Positions 1 to 10,700 of a DNA stretch of 64,000 bases are shown in pieces. The number at the start of each line of letters is the position of its first letter. Positions within the stretch are counted from its first letter, which is position 1. The stretch comes from an uncultured Gemmatimonadaceae bacterium (GTDB lineage Bacteria > Gemmatimonadota > Gemmatimonadetes > Gemmatimonadales > Gemmatimonadaceae), in contig CAWAGQ010000003.1 in the NCBI GenBank assembly GCA_963781585.1, forward strand, positions 1 to 64,000, given 5' to 3'. The position numbers were made by a program, and so were the translations under genes. The notes beneath the pieces are model-generated. The model ran no database searches and was not told the origin of the DNA. It saw nothing but the letters and a program-made list of their open reading frames with translations.

Positions 1-372
1 CCACCCCGGCCACCGAATCGAGCAACGCCACCGCACCGTCCAGCACCCGCAGCGACCGCTCCACTTCGACCGTGAAGTCGACGTGACCCGGCGTGTGGAT
101 GATGTTGATGCGGTACTCCGGACGGCTTCGTTTTCAGTACCGGTTCCATGCCGCCGCCAGAAGCAGGTCGTGGCCGCAGACGTGATGGTGATGCCCCGCT
201 CCTGTTCCTGCTCCATCCAGTCCATGGTGGCGGCACCGTCATGGACCTCCCCCATCTTGTACGACTTGCCCGTGTAGTAGAGAATGCGCTCGGTCGTAGT
301 CGTCTTCCCGGCATCGATGTGCGCCATGATGCCGATGTTGCGATACAGGTCGAGCGGTGTTGTACGTGGCAT
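1..372 (-). CDS. fusA: Elongation factor G, N-terminal part (runs off window)
   Basis: Manual translation from ATG at 372: [35 protein letters not shown]...[19 protein letters not shown]...DTPGHVDF; not in ORF track. Confidence 0.97.
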
Positions 373-612
373 GAGTCTGGTTGAGTCGTGCGCCGGAACG
401 TCGCCGTCAGGCGCCGCGAGCCGGATCGGTGCCGATGTGGTCGGAGCGTGGCGTCCCACGGGCCCGCGCCGCGAGTGCAGCTGTCAATTGTCCGTCCGCG
501 ATCCCGTGGCGACTGCGGCGTTCGCTCAATTGGGGTCCGACCGCCAGCGACGGGCTCCGCATCCACCGCCGCTTCGGACATTCTCGCATCGACGCCGCGT
601 GGCGCCGCCACG

Positions 613-665
613 AAAAACGCGGGTGGACCAGGCGCTCCTTTTGGCAGGAGCCGGTGTCCATCCGC
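613..665 (-). terminator. Putative intrinsic terminator/attenuator hairpin upstream of fusA
   Basis: Minus strand GCGGATGGAC...GCTCCT-loop-AGGAGC...GTCCACCCGC followed by GTTTTT. Confidence 0.45.
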
Positions 666-904
666 CCTCGCCGGGTGCACCCGCTAAAGCGGATGGGGAC
701 CCACGGCGCGCCGAGTGAGCGACCTCGACGATAAATTGTCCTGCGTCGCTTTTCGGGGGGGATCACGCGATCTCGCGCTACCCCGGCCCTTCGAGAAGCC
801 CTCGCGACCGTCGCGAGCCCATGGGAGTCGACGCGCAGTTCGTCGACGTTCACGGTGCTTCCGATGACCAGTCCTGATCGCAAGACGGTCTACGGTAGCC
901 GCTT

Positions 905-933
905 AATTTGCACGGGCGGCAAGGGGAAGTCAA
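905..933 (-). promoter_or_regulatory. Putative sigma70-type promoter facing fusA
   Basis: TTGACT-N17-CAAATT on the minus strand. Confidence 0.45.
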
Positions 934-940
934 CGCTTCG

Positions 941-1077
941 GTTACGCGGGCGGTGGCTCACCGAGCCACTACCGTTACGCGGGGTCATGTCCGGTTCGGA
1001 CAAGACCGTTACGCAGGCCCTGGTAACGGTACCAGTGCCGTTACGCGCGGTAGTGGGCAACGGGGAGAGCCATTGCC
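941..1077. repeat. Array of four GTTACGC linkers, each followed by a variable hairpin
   Basis: GTTACGC at 941, 974, 1008, 1040; stems at 949-973, 983-1007, 1016-1039, 1049-1077. Confidence 0.8.
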
Positions 1078-1180
1078 ATCGACTGGCACCAATCGCGGGA
1101 CCCTGCACCGCAAATCGATGGCGAATGCCCCCCGCCGCTCTTTCACCTACCCGCTGGCAGCCGGCCCCCGCGCGGACTGC

Positions 1181-2389
1181 CTAGCCGGCACTTGGCCGCG
1201 CGAAGAGCACCTCATGAAGGTAGCGGCGCCACGCCACACTCCGACGCGCGTGTCCGGCCATGCGCTTCATCAGGCTCGGCGCCACGCCAGCGGTAACAAT
1301 CTCCTTCGGCGCGTGCCATGGCCGAATAGCACCGTGGCCGCTTCGACGTGGCCGGATGGCGGCGCTCCAGAGCACGGCGCTCAGCTGGTGCGAGGGACAG
1401 AACGCGTCCGACGGCAACAACTGCAACTCGAGATGGCGTGACAGCGGACCAAGCAGGTACTCGCTGCGATAGGGTCTCAACGCCGCCTCCACCCAGGAGG
1501 GCACGTCGAGCCCCCCGCGTGCGTGCGCAACATGAAAGGTCCAGTAGCAGCAGCTGGCTGCATGATGCGCGACCGCCTCGCGCACGATCAGATCCCAGTC
1601 CGTCGCGCCCGCATTCGTCAAAACACTGACATCCCTCACCGCGCGCCAGGCGCCGAAGCGCATCATGTGCGACCAGGCGAAGTGCACACACGTGTGCAGC
1701 AGAGAGTGGGTGGTTGACGGTACGAAGACCGAACCGGGGACACTCTCCAGGCGCCGCGCATCCTGCAGGATCTCGCTCCGGGAAAGGCCAAACCGGTGAC
1801 CCGGCACGAAAAGATCCGTATGCAGCTCCAGCCGCACCCCAGTCCCTTCGCTGTCCAGCAGGGGTGGGCCATGCTGATGCCCCTTATAGCGCCGCCGGGG
1901 ATAGTCGCCCTCTGACTCGACCCACCCAGCTCGACATGCCGCTTCAAACGCGCCCTCCATGTCCTCGGGCGCCACCAGCAGATCCAGGTCCATCATCGGC
2001 CGGTCCGTGAACGACGCATAGACCGTCTTCGCGAGCGCGGCGCCCTTGAGGAGAATCACCGGTACTCGGGCACGGTCGAACTCGCGCAGCGTCGTTTCGA
2101 GGCGGTCACCGAGCAGAGCCGCACGAAACTCGGAGATCGTCGCGAGGCGTGCCAGGCGGATCCGCTGGCTGTCGGGAACCGCCGGCGTTGAAATGGACCG
2201 CAGCTGACGCCATATCACTCCGGCGGCCCCCTCCCGCACCGCCAGCGCGATCAGCAGGTCCCAGTCGATAGACCCCTGCTCCATCTCGGCCTGCATGGCG
2301 CGCACGCCGTTGGGACCCGCGGAGGCCAGGAGCAGACGAGAGGTTGCATTCATGGGCGCGCTCTCGATTGCAGCGAGGAGGGGCAGCAT
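1181..2389 (-). CDS. Nucleotidyltransferase family protein (NTP_transf_5-like), RiPP-cluster associated
   Basis: LLKGAAL and RPMMDLDLLV motifs, ELH; start may be the ATG at 2353. Confidence 0.8.
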   Translation of the reverse strand: MLPLLAAIESAPMNATSRLLLASAGPNGVRAMQAEMEQGSIDWDLLIALAVREGAAGVIWRQLRSISTPAVPDSQRIRLARLATISEFRAALLGDRLETTLREFDRARVPVILLKGAALAKTVYASFTDRPMMDLDLLVAPEDMEGAFEAACRAGWVESEGDYPRRRYKGHQHGPPLLDSEGTGVRLELHTDLFVPGHRFGLSRSEILQDARRLESVPGSVFVPSTTHSLLHTCVHFAWSHMMRFGAWRAVRDVSVLTNAGATDWDLIVREAVAHHAASCCYWTFHVAHARGGLDVPSWVEAALRPYRSEYLLGPLSRHLELQLLPSDAFCPSHQLSAVLWSAAIRPRRSGHGAIRPWHAPKEIVTAGVAPSLMKRMAGHARRSVAWRRYLHEVLFARPSAG

Positions 2390-2392
2390 ACC

Positions 2393-3364
2393 TCAGCCCT
2401 TGGCAACACGTGACTCCGCCAGGACATCACGCTTGGCGGGCGCCGCGGCGTGCCATTCCCTGATCAATGTCACGACTTCCTCCAACCGATCAAGCTCGCG
2501 AGTGATGCTCAGGTCGTACACCGGAACCGTGTCCGCCAGTGCCGCCGCTATCTCGAAAGACCGTGCGGCAGCACGCCCGTCCAGCAGCGAGCCCAGCTTC
2601 CGATAACCAACAAACGTTAGCGCGCTCTCGGTGATGGAGCAACGCGTTCGCGTCGCGGCAGGCGTCCGCGGGTCTACCGGCGCTGGCGCAAGTCGGTAGG
2701 CCGCCTGCAACGGGGTGCGCTCCAGGCCAACCGACGAAACCGCCCCCGGCCGGTACGCCATCTTCCCGCCGAGTCGGGGGTCATGGAAGGGCAGCGCCAC
2801 CGTCGTCGCCGAATCCTCGCGCAGGCGGATGCTCTGTACGCCGGCGCGGAGCAATGGGGGATCCCCCGGATCTACGCTCAGAGTGTCGTCGGTGATGAGA
2901 CGCGCTCCCGACCGCACAAGGGCCGCCGCCAAGGTCGACTTCCCGAAGAACTTCGGTGCCAGAAACGCGATTCCCTGGCCGTCCAGATCCACTGCCGACG
3001 CATGCAGCGTGAGAACACCGCGCGCGTGGAGCGTGAAGGCAAGCACCCGCCCGAGGATGTCGGTGAGGACCGCGTCGCTGGGTTGCACGCCCCCGCTCCA
3101 CCAGGTAATCCGGGTCCCATCGGACGAAAGATCAAATGTCCCGGTGTCGTCGTAGGTGAGACGGTAGCCGGAGCGCGTTTCGTACGATCGGACCATCACG
3201 TCCGTCGTGACGAGTTCCTCGCCGAGTTTCTGCTGAACCACCGCTGGTGCGGGCTCGGCTCTTCGCTCGAGGACGCAATCGAATCGACCCTCCTCGACTG
3301 GCTCCGCGTCAGCGAGGTCAACCTCTGATCGGAGGAGGAGTCCAAAAACAGAATAGGTAGGCAC
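2393..3364 (-). CDS. HPr kinase-like protein (candidate lasso peptide kinase)
   Basis: LHASAV, variant P-loop APKFFGKST, LITDD. Confidence 0.8.
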   Translation of the reverse strand: MPTYSVFGLLLRSEVDLADAEPVEEGRFDCVLERRAEPAPAVVQQKLGEELVTTDVMVRSYETRSGYRLTYDDTGTFDLSSDGTRITWWSGGVQPSDAVLTDILGRVLAFTLHARGVLTLHASAVDLDGQGIAFLAPKFFGKSTLAAALVRSGARLITDDTLSVDPGDPPLLRAGVQSIRLREDSATTVALPFHDPRLGGKMAYRPGAVSSVGLERTPLQAAYRLAPAPVDPRTPAATRTRCSITESALTFVGYRKLGSLLDGRAAARSFEIAAALADTVPVYDLSITRELDRLEEVVTLIREWHAAAPAKRDVLAESRVAKG

Positions 3365-3416
3365 GGCCGGTCGATCAGAGGGGGCGGCAGTTGTCGATCA
3401 TCACTTGGTCAGGCAA

Positions 3417-3433
3417 TGCAAAGCCGACGCCAG
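3417..3433 (-). promoter_or_regulatory. Possible sigma54 -24/-12 promoter for the kinase-nucleotidyltransferase genes
   Basis: CTGGCGTCGGCTTTGCA with correct GG-N10-GC spacing, about 50 nt before the kinase start. Confidence 0.4.
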
Positions 3434-3554
3434 ACGAGCCCGATTTTCACGCAAGCACCGCCTCGGCTGCAGCTCCGAATGGGGGGTTCGATGCTTCCCG
3501 TCGGACCCGCGCCGCTTAGGGCATCGCTGGTTACGGTGCGGCGCCCCCGCAACG

Positions 3555-3597
3555 AAAATGCCGCATCCGCTCTGCAATAGCAGAAGCGGAAGCGGCA
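3555..3597 (-). terminator. Putative terminator downstream of the precursor gene
   Basis: TGCCGCTTCCGCTTCTGC-TATT-GCAGAGCGGATGCGGCA-TTTT on the minus strand. Confidence 0.55.
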
Positions 3598-3713
3598 CAC
3601 CGATGAAGCGGGCTACGCCCTTCAGATAGACCTATGACGCGTCGAGATCAGCAGATCAGGCCAAAGCCGTCGGTCGCGTTACAAGAGTGCTTCCGACGTC
3701 GCACGCCTTCGAC

Positions 3714-3854
3714 TCAGGAACGGGGAGGCATCCCCTTGTCATATCCCTGTCCGGGGTACACCAAGTCCGCCGCAAACAAAACGGTCTTTCCAGGAATGGA
3801 CAGAGTCAGTTCGCGAAAGCTGCCGAACCGCTGTAGCTGGGGTGTCTCGTACAT
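3714..3854 (-). CDS. Lasso-type RiPP precursor peptide, 46 aa
   Basis: MYETPQLQRFGSFRELTLSIPGKTVLFAADLVYPGQGYDKGMPPRS; YxxPxL and Gx5T leader motifs; GGAGG RBS; absent from the ORF track. Confidence 0.88.
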   Translation of the reverse strand: MYETPQLQRFGSFRELTLSIPGKTVLFAADLVYPGQGYDKGMPPRS

Positions 3855-3890
3855 CCTCGCCTCCAGAGAATTAAGATATCCCTAGGTAGT

Positions 3891-3907
3891 AGCAAGTCTC
3901 ATACCAG
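3891..3907 (-). promoter_or_regulatory. Sigma54 (RpoN)-type -24/-12 promoter of the precursor gene
   Basis: CTGGTATGAGACTTGCT matches YTGGYAYR-N4-TTGCW, 36 nt before the ATG. Confidence 0.7.
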
Positions 3908-3956
3908 TCGTGGTCTACCTGCCGCCATGTCTGCACCCACGCTTGGGGCCTCCAAG

Positions 3957-5864
3957 CTAGGCCCGCCGCTCCCGGTCCGCAAGCCATCTCTCGGTCAGCA
4001 AGGTCATCAAAAGTCGCGATCCCAGCAGGTGCCCGCCCTGCTCGGCATATACTGCCGATGCCCGACGGAGCAGACCTACGTCCACGAGGCCCATTCTGAT
4101 GAGAACCGCTGACCCGCCGACGCGGAATGTGGTCTCGATTCGGGACGGAAGCGCCTTGAGCAGGCTGCGCTGGACGTAGTCCACGGGCGCCCCGGTCTTG
4201 GAGGGGCGCGGCGCAAGCACCGAGTCCGGGAGTAGCCCCCGCATGGCGTGGCGGAGAAGCACCTTGATCTCGTCGTTCCGGTTCCGCTCCTCAATGGGCC
4301 TCCGTGCGGCGAATTCGACGATCCGCCGATCCAGGAATGGCGAGCGAAGCTCCACTCCCTCGTCCCAGGCGAAAGCGTGAGTCGCCGACGCCAATCGCCA
4401 GAGCAGTGGGTTCGTGAGCAGATACCGCGCCTCGAACGCGGCGGCGCCCTCCCCGGCCAGTCGAGCGCTCACCGGCGGCCGCAGGGCGCGCGAGAGGCCC
4501 GCCGTGAGACGCAACCAATCGGGCGCGGTGAAATCCCAGAATCCGTGAAGCGGCCGTCCACGGACAGCGCCGATCCAATCGATTGTGTCCGGCGCGAGCA
4601 AGGGAAGGATGCATGCGCGCAGGAAGTCGCGTACGTCGTTTCGGCCCCACTGCCGCCAGGCGGCAACCAGGCGCGAGACCTCACCCCGACGCAGGTGGTC
4701 GGCAAGCACGGCGCTGGATGCCATGAAGAGGAAATCTCCCCCGTTTCCGTCGAAGGCCACACGCGCGCCGAGCGACCGGGTCACCTGAGCCAACCGCCGC
4801 TGCACCGCCTCGAATGGGTGCGCCATCGGGTCGTCGCGCCGCCATGCCATCGCGTCGAGCGGGTCCAGGAGAGGAATATCATCTACGGATAGCCAGCTCA
4901 CGGGCACTCGCCAATGAGCAGCGATCGCCGTAATAAGCTCGTCCTCGCGGCCCCGGTCGCCGGGCGGATACGAAAGCGAAACCGGTAACACTTCCACCGG
5001 CGGTGCACCCCGCGCTGACATCGCGCTCCGTGCCGAAGCGAACAGGGCAGGGGAATCCCAGCCGCCGCTCATCCAGACCACTCCCCTCCCCTGTCTGGGA
5101 AGCCGTGCTACCATCGCGTCCTCCAGCAGGCCGCGCAGTTCCACGGCGCCCTGGTCGAGCGAGCTGCTGTTTCCGCTGTCGGAGAACTCCGTGGGTGCCC
5201 ACTGATGGAGGAGGTACGGCCGCCCTCCGCGCTCGATGCAGACCGTGCCTCCGGGAGGCACTACCCGCACCGCCCCGAATGCTGTTCGATCTCCGGGCAG
5301 CGCCAGCCCCGCGGCTGAGGTCGCGATCATGTCCAGGTCGTAATCCGACGGGACACCCGGAAAGTCTGCCACCGCGCTTGCGGTCGAGGCCACCACCACC
5401 GTGCCGTCGTCCGCCACCGCGTAGTTCAGCGAGCGTCGCCCGCCGAACTCACGCACCAGCAGCAGCCGCCAAGACCTCTTGTCGAAGACGATGAGGGCGT
5501 AGTCACCCTCGAGATGGCGCGCGACGTCGGTGCCCCACACGCGAACTGCCGCGGCCACCAGTTCCGCCGACGCCGAACGGCTGGGCAGCGCCCCACGGTC
5601 GGACAAGCGGCGACGCAAGTCGGCGAGATAGTACAGACTGGCATCAGCGGCTATGACGTGGCTCTCCGTTTCGTAGACGACGGGTCCCGTCCAGCCACTG
5701 AGTTCGGCTTCCCATGGGTGGCGCCCCCCTGCGACCACCGATGAGTCATCGCTCCAGAATTCGATCGACCCGTCCCCGGATGCGAACGTCCCGCCCAGCA
5801 TGGCGGCTACGGCCGTCGGGTTGTCATGGGCGAGCGGCCCGAATGCAGCGGCCAGTGCGGTCAC
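3957..5864 (-). CDS. Lasso cyclase (asparagine synthetase-like, C protein)
   Basis: SGGWDS PP-loop, DGNGGD, RSPFLDRRIVEF, K..LR..M..LLP; GTG start overlaps the B2 stop; no N-terminal catalytic Cys. Confidence 0.88.
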   Translation of the reverse strand: MTALAAAFGPLAHDNPTAVAAMLGGTFASGDGSIEFWSDDSSVVAGGRHPWEAELSGWTGPVVYETESHVIAADASLYYLADLRRRLSDRGALPSRSASAELVAAAVRVWGTDVARHLEGDYALIVFDKRSWRLLLVREFGGRRSLNYAVADDGTVVVASTASAVADFPGVPSDYDLDMIATSAAGLALPGDRTAFGAVRVVPPGGTVCIERGGRPYLLHQWAPTEFSDSGNSSSLDQGAVELRGLLEDAMVARLPRQGRGVVWMSGGWDSPALFASARSAMSARGAPPVEVLPVSLSYPPGDRGREDELITAIAAHWRVPVSWLSVDDIPLLDPLDAMAWRRDDPMAHPFEAVQRRLAQVTRSLGARVAFDGNGGDFLFMASSAVLADHLRRGEVSRLVAAWRQWGRNDVRDFLRACILPLLAPDTIDWIGAVRGRPLHGFWDFTAPDWLRLTAGLSRALRPPVSARLAGEGAAAFEARYLLTNPLLWRLASATHAFAWDEGVELRSPFLDRRIVEFAARRPIEERNRNDEIKVLLRHAMRGLLPDSVLAPRPSKTGAPVDYVQRSLLKALPSRIETTFRVGGSAVLIRMGLVDVGLLRRASAVYAEQGGHLLGSRLLMTLLTERWLADRERRA

Positions 5865-6379
5865 ATTCTCTCGAAAACGTTCAAGCCGTCCACTTCGCGC
5901 AGGTCGGTTACCTCCGACTCCGAGTCGATCAGCTTCGCGCCGGCGTACTCCACCCATGCATGTGCTTTCAAGGCGCCGTCCCGCATCTGGACGCCCACTC
6001 GCACCTGTGCCCCCTGCAGGTGGGCGCGGTCAAGGAGCATGCGTGTGGCAAGCGCCCGCGCCAGGCATGACCCACGGACCAGGCCGTGCTCCGCCACGCG
6101 GCGCACGGCGATGGCGAGCTCGCGCGCCCGGTCAACGCGCTCCGGCAACGTGGCAGCCGACATCCCATCGGGCGTCGGGACCGCCGAAAGCAGCGTACCG
6201 CGTTTCCTGAATCTCAGCGTAAGTCGGGCTTCCACCAGCGCGAGTTGCGCGCGGACCAGGTCGCCCTGTGCCCGTGGCGGGAGCCTACGGAGCGTCCGCA
6301 GGCGATGAAGAATGGCCCGGCCCCTCGACTGGCGTCTCGCCGGCCGCCGATGTGGCCAGCCCCGCGGCCACCAGCTCAC
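5861..6379 (-). CDS. Lasso leader peptidase B2 (transglutaminase-like)
   Basis: CLARALA and AHAWVE catalytic Cys/His motifs; start uncertain, probably nearer 6310. Confidence 0.88.
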   Translation of the reverse strand: MSWWPRGWPHRRPARRQSRGRAILHRLRTLRRLPPRAQGDLVRAQLALVEARLTLRFRKRGTLLSAVPTPDGMSAATLPERVDRARELAIAVRRVAEHGLVRGSCLARALATRMLLDRAHLQGAQVRVGVQMRDGALKAHAWVEYAGAKLIDSESEVTDLREVDGLNVFERM

Positions 6380-6626
6380 GCAGGAATTCGATCGTGTCGC
6401 GGCGAATGCGTTCGATACTCACGTTGGCGAACTCGCGGGCCAGCACCGCGATCATCTCGCTGAAGGTCCTGGAATTCGGCGGCAGCAGGGACCAGATCCG
6501 GGCGCCAACGCGATTCACGCCGAAATACACTTCGTCGTCGGTGGACAGCAGCACGCCGCCCTCGTCGAGTTGTTTGAACACGACCGACGGGCTCGGAACG
6601 GGTAGGGCAAAATCGGATTCGGTCAT
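6285..6626 (-). CDS. PqqD-family RiPP recognition element (lasso B1)
   Basis: LDEGGVLL...YFGVNRVGARIWSLL...FLRELVAAGL; ATG at 6626 with upstream AGGAG. Confidence 0.88.
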   Translation of the reverse strand: MTESDFALPVPSPSVVFKQLDEGGVLLSTDDEVYFGVNRVGARIWSLLPPNSRTFSEMIAVLAREFANVSIERIRRDTIEFLRELVAAGLATSAAGETPVEGPGHSSSPADAP

Positions 6627-6783
6627 GGCTGTGGCCCGCGCTCCTGACGCTGTCCCTGCCGCCGGCGATCCGGGAGGGCTACTGCACTCCTCCAGGACGC
6701 TGACAACCCCTACGTGCACGCGAGGTGCAGACTGCCCGAGTACTTCGACGCCCGGCACGGCCGAGGAGTCACGCCGCCGCGCG

Positions 6784-7254
6784 TTACCAGCGATAGTGCG
6801 CGAACGCCTTGTTGGCTTCCGCCATCCGGTGAGTGTCTTCCTTCTTCTTGATCGCGTTCCCCTCACCCTTCGACGCGGCGATGACTTCAGCTGCGAGCTT
6901 CTCGGCCATTGACTTCTCGTTCCGATCGCGGGAATAGAGAATCAGCCAGCGCATGCCGAGCGCGGTGCGGCGCTCCGGGCGCACCTCGACCGGTACCTGG
7001 TAGGTGGCGCCGCCGACGCGACGGCTCTTCACCTCGACCACGGGTTTGAGATTGGACAGCGCCTGCTTGAAGACGTTGACACCCGGTTGACTGGTGCGCG
7101 ATTCAACGAGGTCCATGGCGCCGTAAAAAATCCGCTCGGCGACCGACTTCTTTCCCTCGTACATGAGGCAGTTGATGAACTTCGAGACGGTCTGGCTGTC
7201 GTAGCGCGCGTCGGCGAGCACCGGGCGCTTGATCCCCTTTTTCCGTCGACTCAC
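6784..7254 (-). CDS. rpsG: 30S ribosomal protein S7
   Basis: [15 protein letters not shown]...[15 protein letters not shown]. Confidence 0.99.
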
Positions 7255-7643
7255 TTCTTTCCTCCGGTGGCGGGCTTGGGCCGCTTGGTACCGTATTTGG
7301 AGCGGCTGCGATTGCGTCCCGTCACGCCGGCGGCGTCGAGCGTGCCGCGCACAATGTGATAACGGACGCCGGGAAGGTCCTTCACCCGGCCACCGCGCAC
7401 CAGCACGATGGAGTGTTCCTGCAGATTGTGTCCTTCACCGGGAATGTAGGCAATCACCTCGAACCCGTTCGTTAGGCGCACCTTGGCGACCTTGCGGAGC
7501 GCCGAGTTCGGCTTCTTGGGCGTGGTGGTATAGACACGCGTGCACACACCTCGGCGAAACGGATTCTGGCGCAACGCGGGCGTCTTGCCCTTTCGGCCCA
7601 CGTCGCGGCGCCCCCGCCGCACGAGCTGGCTGATGGTCGGCAT
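7251..7643 (-). CDS. rpsL: 30S ribosomal protein S12
   Basis: MPTISQLVR...[11 protein letters not shown]...[10 protein letters not shown]. Confidence 0.99.
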
Positions 7644-7697
7644 TCAGTCGGGATTGGACGACAAACACGCCCCGGAGCCGGGGCGCAGGAGACTTGT

Positions 7698-7727
7698 ATC
7701 ATAGACGCGCCCCATGGCGGCAGTCAA
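7698..7727 (-). promoter_or_regulatory. Sigma70-type promoter of the str operon
   Basis: TTGACT-N18-TATGAT, about 55 nt upstream of rpsL. Confidence 0.65.
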
Positions 7728-7792
7728 GGCAAGCGCGAGGGGCTTCGCGTGCCGCGCGACGCCCCTGCGCTCACCGCTGTCCCGCGTCCGCA

Positions 7793-10700
7793 CTATTCTC
7801 CCCCCGGACCCAGCGCGAATCCGCTCTCGGCGAAACTCGACGAGAAGATCCCGGGCAGCGGTGTCTCGATCCCGGGAAGTTCCTCGGGGCGAGGAAGCTC
7901 CTCCCCCTCGATCTCCACCTCCTGGTACCGATACTGCCCGGTGCCGGCCGGAATGAGATGGCCGATGATGATGTTCTCCTTGAGTCCGAGCAGGTCGTCT
8001 TTCGCGCCACGAATGGCAGCGTCGGTCAGAACCCGCGTCGTCTCCTGGAACGACGCGGCCGAGATGAACGACTGCGTGGTCAGGCTCGCTTTCGTGATAC
8101 CCAGAAGCAGCGGCTCGGCGGTGGCCGGCTTGAGCTTCTTCTTCTTCGCCCGCTCGTTCTGTTCCCGGAAGCCCTGCCGGTCCACGTGCTCGCCTTCGAG
8201 GAAGTCGGTGTCAGCCGACTCCACCACCCGGACCTTCTGCAACATCTGCTTGACGATCACGCCGATGTGCTTGTCGTTGATCTTTACGCCCTGCAGCCGG
8301 TACACCTCCTGCACTTCGTTCAGCAGATACTCCTGCACGGCGCGCGGTCCCTTGATCCGCAGAATGTCGTGCGGATTCACGGGCCCCTCGGTGAGCCGGT
8401 CGCCTGCCCGCACCCGGTCGCCCTCGTGCACCCGGAGGTGCTTGCCCGCCGGGACCTCGTACACCTGGGCTTCCTGCGCGTCGTCCACCGCCCACTGCCC
8501 GTCCAGGGACTTGCCGGGGTGCACGAAGATCTCGCGCTTCCCGCGCTTGATGTCACCGAATCGGACGATGCCGTCGATTTCGGAGATGGTGGCCGGGTCC
8601 TTCGGCCGGCGTGCCTCGAACAGCTCGGCGACGCGCGGCAGACCGCCCGTGATGTCGCGCGTCTTGTACGCCTCGCGCGAGATCTTGGCGATGGTCTCTC
8701 CGGCATGGATCGTCTGGCCGTCATCCACCACCAGCTGGGCTCCCACCGGGATGACGAAGTCGCGCACTTTCTTCTCCTTCCCGCCCTTCGACTGCCAGAT
8801 CTCGATGTGCGGATGGAGCCGCTTTTCGCGATCCTCGGTGATCACGCGCTGGCGCAGGCCGGTCAGTTCATCCAGTTCCTCGGAAATCGTCTCGTCCTCC
8901 ACGATGTCGACGAACCGGATGGCGCCCTCCACGTCCGAGATGATCGGATTGGTATACGGGTCCCAGGTGAAGATCGCCTGATCCTTTTTGACTTCCTCGC
9001 CGTCCTTGACGAGCAGCGCCGCGCCTAACGGGACGGCCAGTCGCGCTCCCACGGTAGCGGTGTGGTCGCCCGACGAGCGGATCGTCAGCTCGCCCTCGTA
9101 CGACGTCACGATGCGATGGCCATCGGGGTTCTGCACCGTTACCAGGCGGTCACCGAACTCGATGATGCCGGGGACCTTCGTCTTGCGCACCGTCTGCTCG
9201 GCGATCCGGGCTGCCGTCCCGCCGATGTGGAAGGTACGCAGTGTGAGCTGGGTACCGGGCTCGCCGATCGACTGGGCCGCGATGATCCCCACCGCCTCGC
9301 CCAGATCAACCATGGCCATGGTCGCCAGGTTGCGTCCGTAGCACATCCGGCACAGCCCGCGCGTTGCCTCACAGGTGAGCACCGAGCGGATCCGTACCGC
9401 TTCGATCCCCGCCTCCTCGATGGCGCGCGCCATGTCCTCGTCGATCAGCTGGCCCGCCTCGGCCAGGATGAGCGCGCGACCGACCTCGTCCCGCGCATGC
9501 GGATCGATCACGTCCTCCGCCGCCACGCACCCCACGATCCGCTCCGAGAGGGGCTCGATGATATCCTCGCCCTCCTTCAGCGCCGAGATGTCCAGCCCCT
9601 GGATCGTGCCGCAATCCTCCTCGGTGATCGTGACATCCTGCGCCACGTCCACCAGTCGACGCGTGAGGTAACCGGCATCGGCGGTCTTCAAGGCGGTATC
9701 GGCCAATCCCTTGCGTGCGCCGTGTGTCGAAATGAAGTACTCCAGCACCGACAGCCCTTCCCGGAAGTTCGACTTGATCGGGCTCTCGATGATCTCGCCG
9801 ATGCCGCCGGTAAGCTTCTTCTGCGGCTTCGCCATCAGGCCGCGCATGCCGGCCAGCTGGCGGATCTGATCGCGGCTGCCGCGCGATCCGGAATCGAACA
9901 TCATGAATACCGGGTTGAAGCCCCGATTGGCCTCGCGCATCGTCTTCACCATCGCGTCGGCCACGTCCGAATTGGCGTGCGTCCAGGTGTCGATGACTTT
10001 GTTGTAGCGCTCGCCGTTCGTGATGTTGCCCGTCTGGTACGCGCGCTGGAACCGTTCCACCCGCTCCTCGGCCTCGCCCAGCAGCGTCTCCTTCTCAGGG
10101 GGGATCACCAGGTCCTCCACGCCGATCGAGATCCCGCCGCGCGTGGCGTAGAAGAACCCGAAGTCCTTGAGTCGGTCCAGGAACTCGACCGTCTTGGCCA
10201 GACCGCACTGCCGATACGTTTCGAAGACCAGCTCGCCGAGCGCCTTCTTCTTCATGTCGCGATTCTGGTACTCTATCTCCGTCGGGACGATGGCGTTGAA
10301 CAGTACGCGTCCCGCGGTGGTCACCACCCAGCGCGCGTCGCCGTTGCGGCCGATGGCATATCGTACCGGCGTGTGGTAGGTCACCCGGCCCAGGGACAGC
10401 GCCATCTCCACTTCGGAGGGCGTGGTGAACGATTTCAGCGCCGCCAGGGCCTTGGGATCCCTGGCTGTCTTGTCGAAATCGACCGGCGCCTTGGTCGCGA
10501 AGTAGCACCCCAGGACGATGTCCTGCGACGGCTCGGCGACCGGACGCCCGTCCGACGGTTTCAGAATGTTGTTGGACGAGATCATCAGCAGCCGCGACTC
10601 CAGCTGCGACTCGAACGAGAGCGGCACGTGCACCGCCATCTGGTCGCCGTCGAAGTCGGCATTGAACGCCGCACACACCAGCGGATGGATGCGGATGGCC

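Follow-up and report, generated by a model that had tools for sequence, protein, structure and literature searches.

A lasso-type precursor family of Gemmatimonadaceae with a lysine at a fixed distance before its aspartate, and a possible side-chain ring closure

Described lasso peptides all close their ring on the N-terminal amine, with an Asp or Glu at core position 7, 8 or 9 as the acceptor (excerpts of PMC8498205), and the rules by which new members are mined from genomes demand an acid at one of these positions. A small gene of an uncultured Gemmatimonadaceae bacterium breaks this rule. It lies at positions 3714..3854 in the first 64,000 nucleotides of contig CAWAGQ010000003.1 (assembly GCA_963781585.1), the stretch that was analysed as a whole and is called the window below, and it encodes a 46-residue precursor with a lasso leader. 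Since it breaks the acceptor rule we do not file it as a canonical member, despite this leader and the complete cluster around it. The question raised by the locus is therefore which amine, if any, the cluster's cyclase would join to the acid of such a core. As judged from sequence comparison, the precursor belongs to a distinct and conserved family of about 100 distinct members, whose defining feature is a constant spacing from a Lys to the Asp that follows it, and we see an even chance that the cyclase joins the side-chain amine of core Lys5, not the N-terminus, to Asp12.

A lasso leader followed by an unusual core

Translation of the minus-strand open reading frame (ORF) at 3714..3854 gives MYETPQLQRFGSFRELTLSIPGKTVLFAADLVYPGQGYDKGMPPRS, exactly the product that an earlier sequence-only reading had proposed. 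Its first 18 residues carry the motifs Y2-x-x-P5-x-L7 and G11-x5-T17 with Thr at -2, and the call of a canonical leader was borne out by NCBIfam model NF033521 (lasso_leader_L3), which scores 28.5 bits against a cut-off of 19 and aligns residues 2-18 to model positions 1-17 of 20. Because of this match, the canonical Thr(-2)-x cleavage site is placed after Thr17-Leu18. The ribosome-binding site reported along with the gene is also present, and its region (CTCTGGAGGCG) recurs upstream of the orthologue in a genome of the same genus (G001). A stretch of 103 nt separates the precursor gene from the upstream lasso cyclase gene, within a complete B1/B2/C cluster.

Cleavage after Thr-Leu leaves a core of 28 residues whose only acids are D12 and D21. 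Positions 7-9 hold neither Asp nor Glu, so the statement that the acceptor rule fails was correct; the core contains no Cys either. Asp12 aligns with the ring Asp of relatives. A profile search for further precursors in the same genome returned nothing beyond this single match.

One trivial explanation would be a decayed copy of a canonical gene. The same-genus genome G001 holds the same cluster with a precursor, MYETPKLERFGSFRELTLQTAGKTLLFTADLIFPNQGYDKGNPPRS, that is 76% identical, which marks the ORF as more than a chance frame. Of 25 codons that differ between the two genes, 14 changes are synonymous and 11 nonsynonymous; the arm residues S-I-P are all replaced (Q-T-A in G001), and G-K-T and Asp12 are retained. 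Homologues with an acid at 7-9 had been named as the sign of degeneration: they do occur in the wider family, which has Asp at position 8, while the closest homologues share the non-canonical core, and the test thus speaks for the finding. Given this shared odd core and the excess of synonymous changes, we rejected the degenerate copy.

A Lys-Asp family with a variable arm

Related cores with the Lys-Asp arrangement (hereafter K-D cores) amount to 97. Lys stands six residues before the conserved Asp (K-x5-D) in 94 of them, and the other three, which are this gene and its two closest kin, have K-x6-D. By contrast with this near-constant spacing, the stretch between the Thr-x site and Lys takes 17 different lengths, from 1 to 19 residues, and the residue preceding Lys is Gly in 53/94 cores and otherwise Thr, Phe, Ala, Gln, Ser, His, Leu and others. 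Precursors with near-identical leaders illustrate this well: their cores begin QSKVNPPLD..., QGGKIYPPYD..., GSLKVFPTFD... and QGSLKVNPPFD..., with 2, 3, 3 and 4 residues before Lys, and K-x5-D is unchanged throughout. The present gene has four residues before Lys5 and then K-x6-D to Asp12; its leader, tail pattern and cyclase clade all fall inside the family. What stays constant in length in canonical relatives is the ring.

Among the 95 unique cores that lack an acid at 7-9, K-x5-D occurs in 78, whereas composition-preserving shuffles gave 7.2 on average and never more than 18 (2000 shuffles); the runner-up Lys-to-Asp spacing is found in 15 cores. These counts overstate independence, because the sequences are related and the profile of the later searches contained the motif. 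The comparison of many length changes before Lys with almost none between Lys and Asp is the robust part.

The sets behind these counts were obtained in two steps. Of 401 genomes in this bacterial family, 166 had matches to a leader-dominated profile (A1) at E-values up to 0.01; 150 of the matches were listed and 109 unlisted, and the classification rests on the matches listed. From the listed sample we left out matches in two genomes flagged unpublished (three in G149, and G313:C51), a contig-end stub of 27 residues and matches already present in other loci. This gave 131 unique precursors, among the matches listed, that were unselected on their core: 104 have D/E at 7-9 only, 8 have D/E at 7-9 and also K-x5-D, 7 have K-x5-D without D/E at 7-9, 2 are the K-x6-D pair of this gene and G001, and 10 have neither arrangement. 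The highest-numbered acid within 7-9 was at position 8 in 101 precursors, with 10 more at position 9 and a single one at position 7. Three canonical sequences of the 131 come from genomes flagged unpublished (G008, G313), and no conclusion rests on them. Further relatives were collected through a cyclase search of genome contigs and through a profile of five non-canonical precursors run against two protein collections. Pooled with the loci, the set holds 241 unique leader-bearing precursors, with D/E at 7-9 and no K-x5-D in 130, both in 16, K-x5-D without D/E at 7-9 in 78, and neither in 17, three of which are of the K-x6-D type of this gene. The family thus sampled, for which open-access papers and bioRxiv yielded no description, is present in many Gemmatimonadaceae genomes and metagenome contigs, and the 7-9 mining rules would discard it whole.

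The K-D cores share further regularities. Counting Cys before Lys, between Lys and Asp, and in the tail, 58 of the 97 show the pattern (1,0,1), 26 show (0,0,2), one shows (0,1,1) and 12 have none; these classes probably reflect few evolutionary events. Every one of the 58 cores with a Cys before Lys carries exactly one tail Cys. An odd Cys total is never seen (0/97), compared with 39/130 canonical cores, and because odd counts are that common among the latter the parity argument is only suggestive. No covariation of the Cys-to-Lys with the Asp-to-Cys distance was seen by eye, the tail distance being nearly constant. Residue 1 is Gln in 76 of the 88 K-D cores with two or more residues before Lys, against 7/130 canonical cores; an N-terminal Gln can cap the free end as pyroglutamate. 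The C-terminal residue is Ser in 95/97. From the Cys pairing and the enrichment of Gln1, the arm seems to be retained in the product.

Candidate amines for ring closure

Three outcomes had been suggested for this core on first reading: an unusually large 12-residue ring, trimming to a core in which Gly1 closes on Asp9, and a Lys5-Asp12 side-chain lactam. We favour the lactam, because the Lys-Asp distance is fixed (94/97) while everything N-terminal of Lys varies in length. In the pathway that we propose, B1 would bind the YxxPxL...Gx5T leader and B2 would cut after Thr17-Leu18, whereupon the dedicated cyclase would adenylate Asp12 and link it to the epsilon-amine of Lys5 in place of the residue-1 alpha-amine. 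The 16-residue tail would pass through the macrolactam and the Ser-Ile-Pro-Gly arm would stay free. By analogy with paeninodin and pseudomycoidin, from which the roles of a precursor Ser kinase and a nucleotidyltransferase are known (excerpts of PMC8498205), the kinase of the cluster would phosphorylate C-terminal Ser28 and the nucleotidyltransferase may decorate the phosphate. Throughout the family, a Lys-closed ring would free the N-terminus as a second arm of 1-19 residues, often pyroglutamate-capped and disulfide-tied to the threaded tail, a picture that we consider to stand in even balance between right and wrong.

The size of the ring is in keeping with such a closure. By our own count, joining Lys N-zeta to Asp C-gamma yields 3m+8 atoms, that is 26 for K-x5-D and 29 here, and both sizes fit inside the 22-29 atoms of alpha-amine rings of 7-9 residues; an eight-residue Glu ring has 26 atoms (excerpts of PMC13352647). 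In the arrangement X1-K2-x5-D8 the two candidate amines give rings that are one atom apart, and therefore a simple evolutionary route can be drawn in which Lys came to be used and the N-terminus was free to grow.

Closure on the alpha-amine would instead demand rings of 8 to 26 residues across the family and, in this peptide, a 12-residue (37-atom) macrolactam from Ser1 to Asp12. Such closure would yield a loose lasso or else a branched-cyclic peptide, with a ring-to-tail disulfide lock in many relatives. This is the only known lasso-cyclase chemistry (excerpts of PMC8498205), and it accounts for the retained B2 and Thr(-2). The pairing of N-terminal with tail Cys resembles the ring-to-tail disulfides of known classes and fits equally well, and many first residues, Gln and Ser included, are already tolerated in canonical relatives. 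However, it leaves the fixed Lys-Asp distance (94/97) unexplained while ring length would take 17 values, and rings of 9, 10, 11 and 12 residues would have to be assumed for close relatives whose leaders are nearly the same. Known cyclases are sensitive to such changes: altering ring size by one residue strongly cuts production, and the tolerance of +/-1 in fusilassin was called unusual (excerpts of PMC13352647 and bioRxiv 10.1101/2020.11.25.399105). Moreover, this core has no Cys, so nothing would hold a threaded tail in a 12-residue ring. We regard the large N-terminal ring as unlikely; if true instead, it would likewise break the 7-9 rule.

If the residues between the Thr-x site and the ring belonged to the leader as an extension, a second trimming, by B2 or by a host peptidase, could restore a canonical ring, from Gly4 to Asp12 (nine residues) here and as X1-Lys2...Asp8 or Lys1...Asp7 in relatives. 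The resulting ring sizes, 9 here and 8 or 7 elsewhere, would be canonical, X1 would be as variable as residue 1 of canonical relatives, and the arrangement X1-Lys2...Asp8 is exactly that of class V peptides (excerpts of PMC13178200). An Ile at -2 of the new Gly4 terminus also has a validated leader-penultimate precedent (excerpts of PMC10368454). The precedent is BsfA of Bradymonas sediminis, which like the present precursor belongs to a kinase-containing lasso cluster and whose Ile(-2) is resembled by the Ile of S-I-P before Gly4 (same excerpts); in BsfA, however, Ile replaces Thr at the canonical spacing, whereas here the canonical Thr(-2) stands three residues closer to the start of the leader, and conservation of the Ile fails in G001, which has Q-T-A for S-I-P. 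Several family-wide regularities also count against trimming. The residue before Lys is Gly in just 53/94 cores, neither Thr nor any other residue is conserved at -2 of the new site (two before X1, Tyr is found in 24, Trp in 22 and Gly in 13 of 82), and the spacing to the motif that binds the recognition element (RRE) would differ by as many as 18 residues. Among the ORFs between rpsG and fusA, no additional protease gene was found. Trimming would also discard the Cys that is paired with a single tail Cys (58/58) as well as the conserved Gln1, and would leave the invariant Lys without a reason. We therefore disfavour the Gly1-Asp9 proposal, and trimming in general appears decidedly unlikely to us.

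K-D precursors are accompanied by cyclase groups of their own. In a maximum-likelihood tree of 31 cyclases, the eight partners of K-D precursors with an arm of at least 2 residues form one group (ultrafast bootstrap 82, Shimodaira-Hasegawa-like approximate likelihood ratio test 90), the inner six of which, including the present one, are supported at 100/100. In a neighbouring group (98/98), three cyclases have K-x5-D precursors that are short-armed or ambiguous, and one has a canonical partner. Scanning metagenomes with this cyclase gave 80 loci, 51 of them with a recognisable precursor. In the 11 of these with K-x5-D, the cyclase shares 42-47% identity with the present one; in the 40 loci with D/E at 7-9 the identity is 35-41% for 39, the exception (L252) being a partial match at 45%. 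One cluster, L056, has two cyclase genes (4001-5950 and 6912-8654), with a K-x5-D precursor after the first and a canonical D7/D8 precursor after the second, and would make a natural pair for swaps.

These data bear on whether a lasso ring is made at all. The peptide might be linear or otherwise modified, as a phosphorylated or glycosylated product in which Lys and Asp serve binding or a non-covalent contact, with the cyclase acting elsewhere. Leader-bearing peptides with no usable acid do exist in the same bacterial family, in clusters that lack a cyclase, some leader-bearing peptides have no acid at all, and the present genome holds this one precursor match only. However, in all K-D loci examined the precursor is directly preceded by an intact cyclase gene (11/11, with 11 more in the metagenome set), and in the present cluster the cyclase is translationally coupled to B2. 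Five of these K-D loci were found via the precursor alone (L176, L177, L178, L180, L181), and an adjoining cyclase was present in 5/5. The cyclase is missing together with the motif in 2/2 loci (L179 and L182) of a leader-bearing family with neither D7-9 nor K-D, whose clusters keep kinase and nucleotidyltransferase besides B1 and B2; L179 additionally encodes an ABC exporter. The presence of the cyclase in all five loci and its absence from these two indicate that it tracks either acceptor arrangement, and we consider a ringless product very unlikely.

The family of L179 and L182 (VSLNLGAFALN...CDC...) was noted in its own right. Its cores are of the kind VSLNLGAFALNANVVNG..ASCDCIPG, with the first conserved acid at position 23 and no conserved Lys, and further precursors of this type occur in L142, L154, L157, L161, L163, L169 and L172-L174. 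A cyclase search also gave no match in one genome of the genus that carries them, and their product is probably linear or otherwise modified. Two other precursors, P0096 and P0098, have lasso-type leaders on cores without any Asp or Glu, for example WWSWWNYFHTHYNGCGHSRS, and for this reason are unable to form the usual isopeptide. In locus L024 (5685-5849, minus strand) of the related genome G016, two kinase genes flank a second leader-bearing precursor, whose core abounds in Gly and aromatic residues (GFWNFFGGGFGGFGG...) and has its first acid at 29.

Lys might also serve another cross-link. In the class V peptides lariocidin B and gelatinamin A a Lys likewise stands six residues before the ring Asp (Lys2, Asp8), and its side-chain isopeptide forms a second ring-tail tether; the ring itself is a normal alpha-amine ring, however, and a clostripain-like transpeptidase links Lys to the C-terminus (excerpts of PMC13178200). 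The Lys of the K-D family, by contrast, can lie up to 19 residues from the N-terminus. Besides such a bond to the C-terminus, a transglutaminase-type bond between Gln1 and Lys made by B2 can be imagined, as Gln1 is enriched in the family and B2 belongs to the transglutaminase-like superfamily. Against this alternative, the clostripain family (PF03415) has no match in this genome (93.53% complete) or among the cluster ORFs, the present peptide starts with Ser1 and not Gln1, the Gln1-to-Lys distance is not conserved whereas the Lys-to-Asp distance is, and the problem of the ring acceptor would remain. This alternative strikes us as extremely unlikely. Side-chain macrolactams between Lys and Asp or Glu also occur in another kind of ribosomal peptide, the graspetides (microviridin-type peptides), where they are made by ATP-grasp ligases. 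The Pfam scan of the cluster ORFs contained no ATP-grasp domain, and the only candidate ring enzyme here is, in contrast, the Asn-synthetase-like lasso cyclase.

That said, several points weigh against closure on Lys5. All of its support is comparative, and the counts are inflated by related sequences and by a profile that contained the motif. The use of a side-chain amine by a lasso cyclase has no precedent in open-access papers and bioRxiv, the scope of our literature search, outside which most subscription journals lie; within the same scope we found no description of a Lys-closed lasso ring, of a lasso peptide from Gemmatimonadota, of larger rings or of pyroglutamyl lasso peptides. The present gene has K-x6-D, not the K-x5-D of its family. 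Both B2 and an invariant Thr(-2) are kept, which are needed for closure on the alpha-amine and not, chemically, for closure on Lys. A conserved Lys need not be the ring nucleophile, because class V conserves Lys2, six residues before the ring Asp8, for another cross-link (excerpts of PMC13178200), and K-D members with one or two residues before Lys (16 cores) could close canonically. The Cys pairing also fits a large alpha-amine ring bridged to its tail, and unpaired Cys is tolerated in the wider family, as the odd counts in 39/130 canonical cores indicate. Finally, only four cyclase positions (V202, D376, K587, H643) separate the partners of K-D precursors from those of canonical ones.

Should the Lys side chain be used, the known chemistry of lasso cyclases would widen, and a precursor family found across many Gemmatimonadaceae genomes and metagenome contigs would be explained. 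The product would be a two-armed, mechanically interlocked scaffold with an N-terminus free for extension, which could be useful in peptide engineering.

The cluster and its genomic setting

The precursor gene is embedded in a group of co-oriented genes, whose positions are collected in Table 1 with those of the precursor's parts. All lie on the minus strand in the order rpoB, rpoC, rpsL, rpsG, B1, B2, C, precursor, kinase, nucleotidyltransferase, fusA.

Table 1. Positions of the precursor, its parts and the surrounding genes in the window, and of two cyclase-free precursors in other loci
Feature	Position	Strand	Basis
Precursor gene A (ATG, 46 codons and stop)	3714..3854	minus	NF033521 match and orthologues
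Leader, residues 1-18	3801-3854	minus	part of precursor gene A
Core, residues 19-46 (28 residues)	3717-3800	minus	part of precursor gene A
GGAGG ribosome-binding site	3860..3864	minus	5 nt upstream of precursor ATG
Codon of core Lys5 (precursor residue 23), proposed ring nucleophile	3786..3788	minus	Lys-Asp spacing in 97 related cores
Codon of core Asp12 (precursor residue 30), proposed ring acceptor	3765..3767	minus	invariant column in alignment A3
Codon of C-terminal Ser28, predicted phosphorylation site	3717..3719	minus	C-terminal Ser in 95/97 K-D cores and cluster kinase
Cyclase C, Asn-synthetase-like, PP-loop SGGWDS	3957..5957	minus	Asn_synthase above Pfam cut-off; trees
Leader peptidase B2, transglutaminase-like cysteine protease	5861..6379	minus	PF13471 54 bits; NF033537 54.6 bits, cut-off 33
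B1, PqqD-like leader-recognition protein (113 residues from ATG 6626)	6285..6626	minus	PqqD above Pfam cut-off
HPr-kinase-related protein, putative precursor Ser kinase	2393..3364	minus	sub-cut-off matches; homologue in related clusters
NTP_transf_5 nucleotidyltransferase, putative phospho-Ser tailoring enzyme	1181..2389	minus	PF14907 124.3 bits, cut-off 31.2
rpsG (ribosomal protein S7), upstream cluster border	6784..7254	minus	
fusA (elongation factor G) 5' part, downstream cluster border, cut by window end	1..372	minus	
L179/L182-type precursors	L179:8839-9000; L182:9212-9379	plus (L179); minus (L182)	rpsG-fusA clusters

Some of these assignments fall below lasso-specific or curated thresholds. 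The lasso-specific NCBIfam models stay under their cut-offs for the cyclase (117.7 against 525) and for PqqD (31.5 against 70), and so do the kinase models PF07475 (21.9 against 33.3) and TIGR04352 (42.4 against 200). The longest cyclase ORF has 666 residues from ATG 5957, although the true start is probably the GTG at 5864 (635 residues), which shares the sequence GTGA with the B2 stop codon and corresponds to where the G001 orthologue (635 residues) starts. B2 contains one Cys and an H-A-W-V motif, and we take these residues, like those of the SGGWDS PP-loop of the cyclase, to play their customary roles.

Judged by its parts, the system would work most like that of the phosphorylated and phosphoglycosylated lasso peptides, such as paeninodin, pseudomycoidin and their proteobacterial relatives, which likewise combine split B1 and B2 with an Asn-synthetase-like cyclase, a nucleotidyltransferase, a C-terminal Ser and an HPr-kinase homologue, the last putative in the present cluster (excerpts of PMC8498205). 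That group, however, has N-terminal alpha-amine rings of 7-9 residues, whereas here there is no acid at 7-9, a fixed Lys-Asp pair and a variable arm; in addition, the present cluster has no transporter gene and comes from a different phylum, Gemmatimonadota. Nearer at hand are the canonical precursors of the same bacterial family (X-G-x-x-G-x-x-D8-G), which agree in leader type, cluster make-up, a tail D-G motif, an R-S terminus and, often, the rpsG-fusA site. They differ in having Asp8, no conserved Lys and a hydrophobic residue 1 (Val, Ala, Ile or Leu in 93/130), and their cyclases fall mostly in other branches of the tree.

The whole cluster (window 372-7254) interrupts the rpsL-rpsG-fusA operon as a co-oriented insert after rpsG and before fusA, with rpoB and rpoC just upstream of the operon. 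Many Gemmatimonadaceae carry it inside these ribosomal genes. One or both of rpsG and fusA also flank related clusters in 9/12 other loci examined (L023, L024/L057, L055, L056, L177, L178, L179, L180 and L182), including clusters with different precursor types. The insertion could signify co-expression with the ribosomal genes, or an intracellular or translation-related role.

Two long non-coding gaps interrupt the cluster, one of 349 nt between precursor and kinase (3365-3713) and one of about 800 nt between nucleotidyltransferase and fusA (373-1180). Pfam gave no match for the gap-region ORFs 3401-3598 and 3634-3885, and window 1-8000 had no Rfam match with E-values up to 0.1. Nothing above shuffles emerged when 3300-4100 and 300-7800 were scanned for promoters and terminators; one promoter-like site is located upstream of rpsL. 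Several K-x5-D clusters (L055, L057, L178) contain two PqqD-like B1 homologues where the present cluster has one, and L024 has two kinase genes where this window has one.

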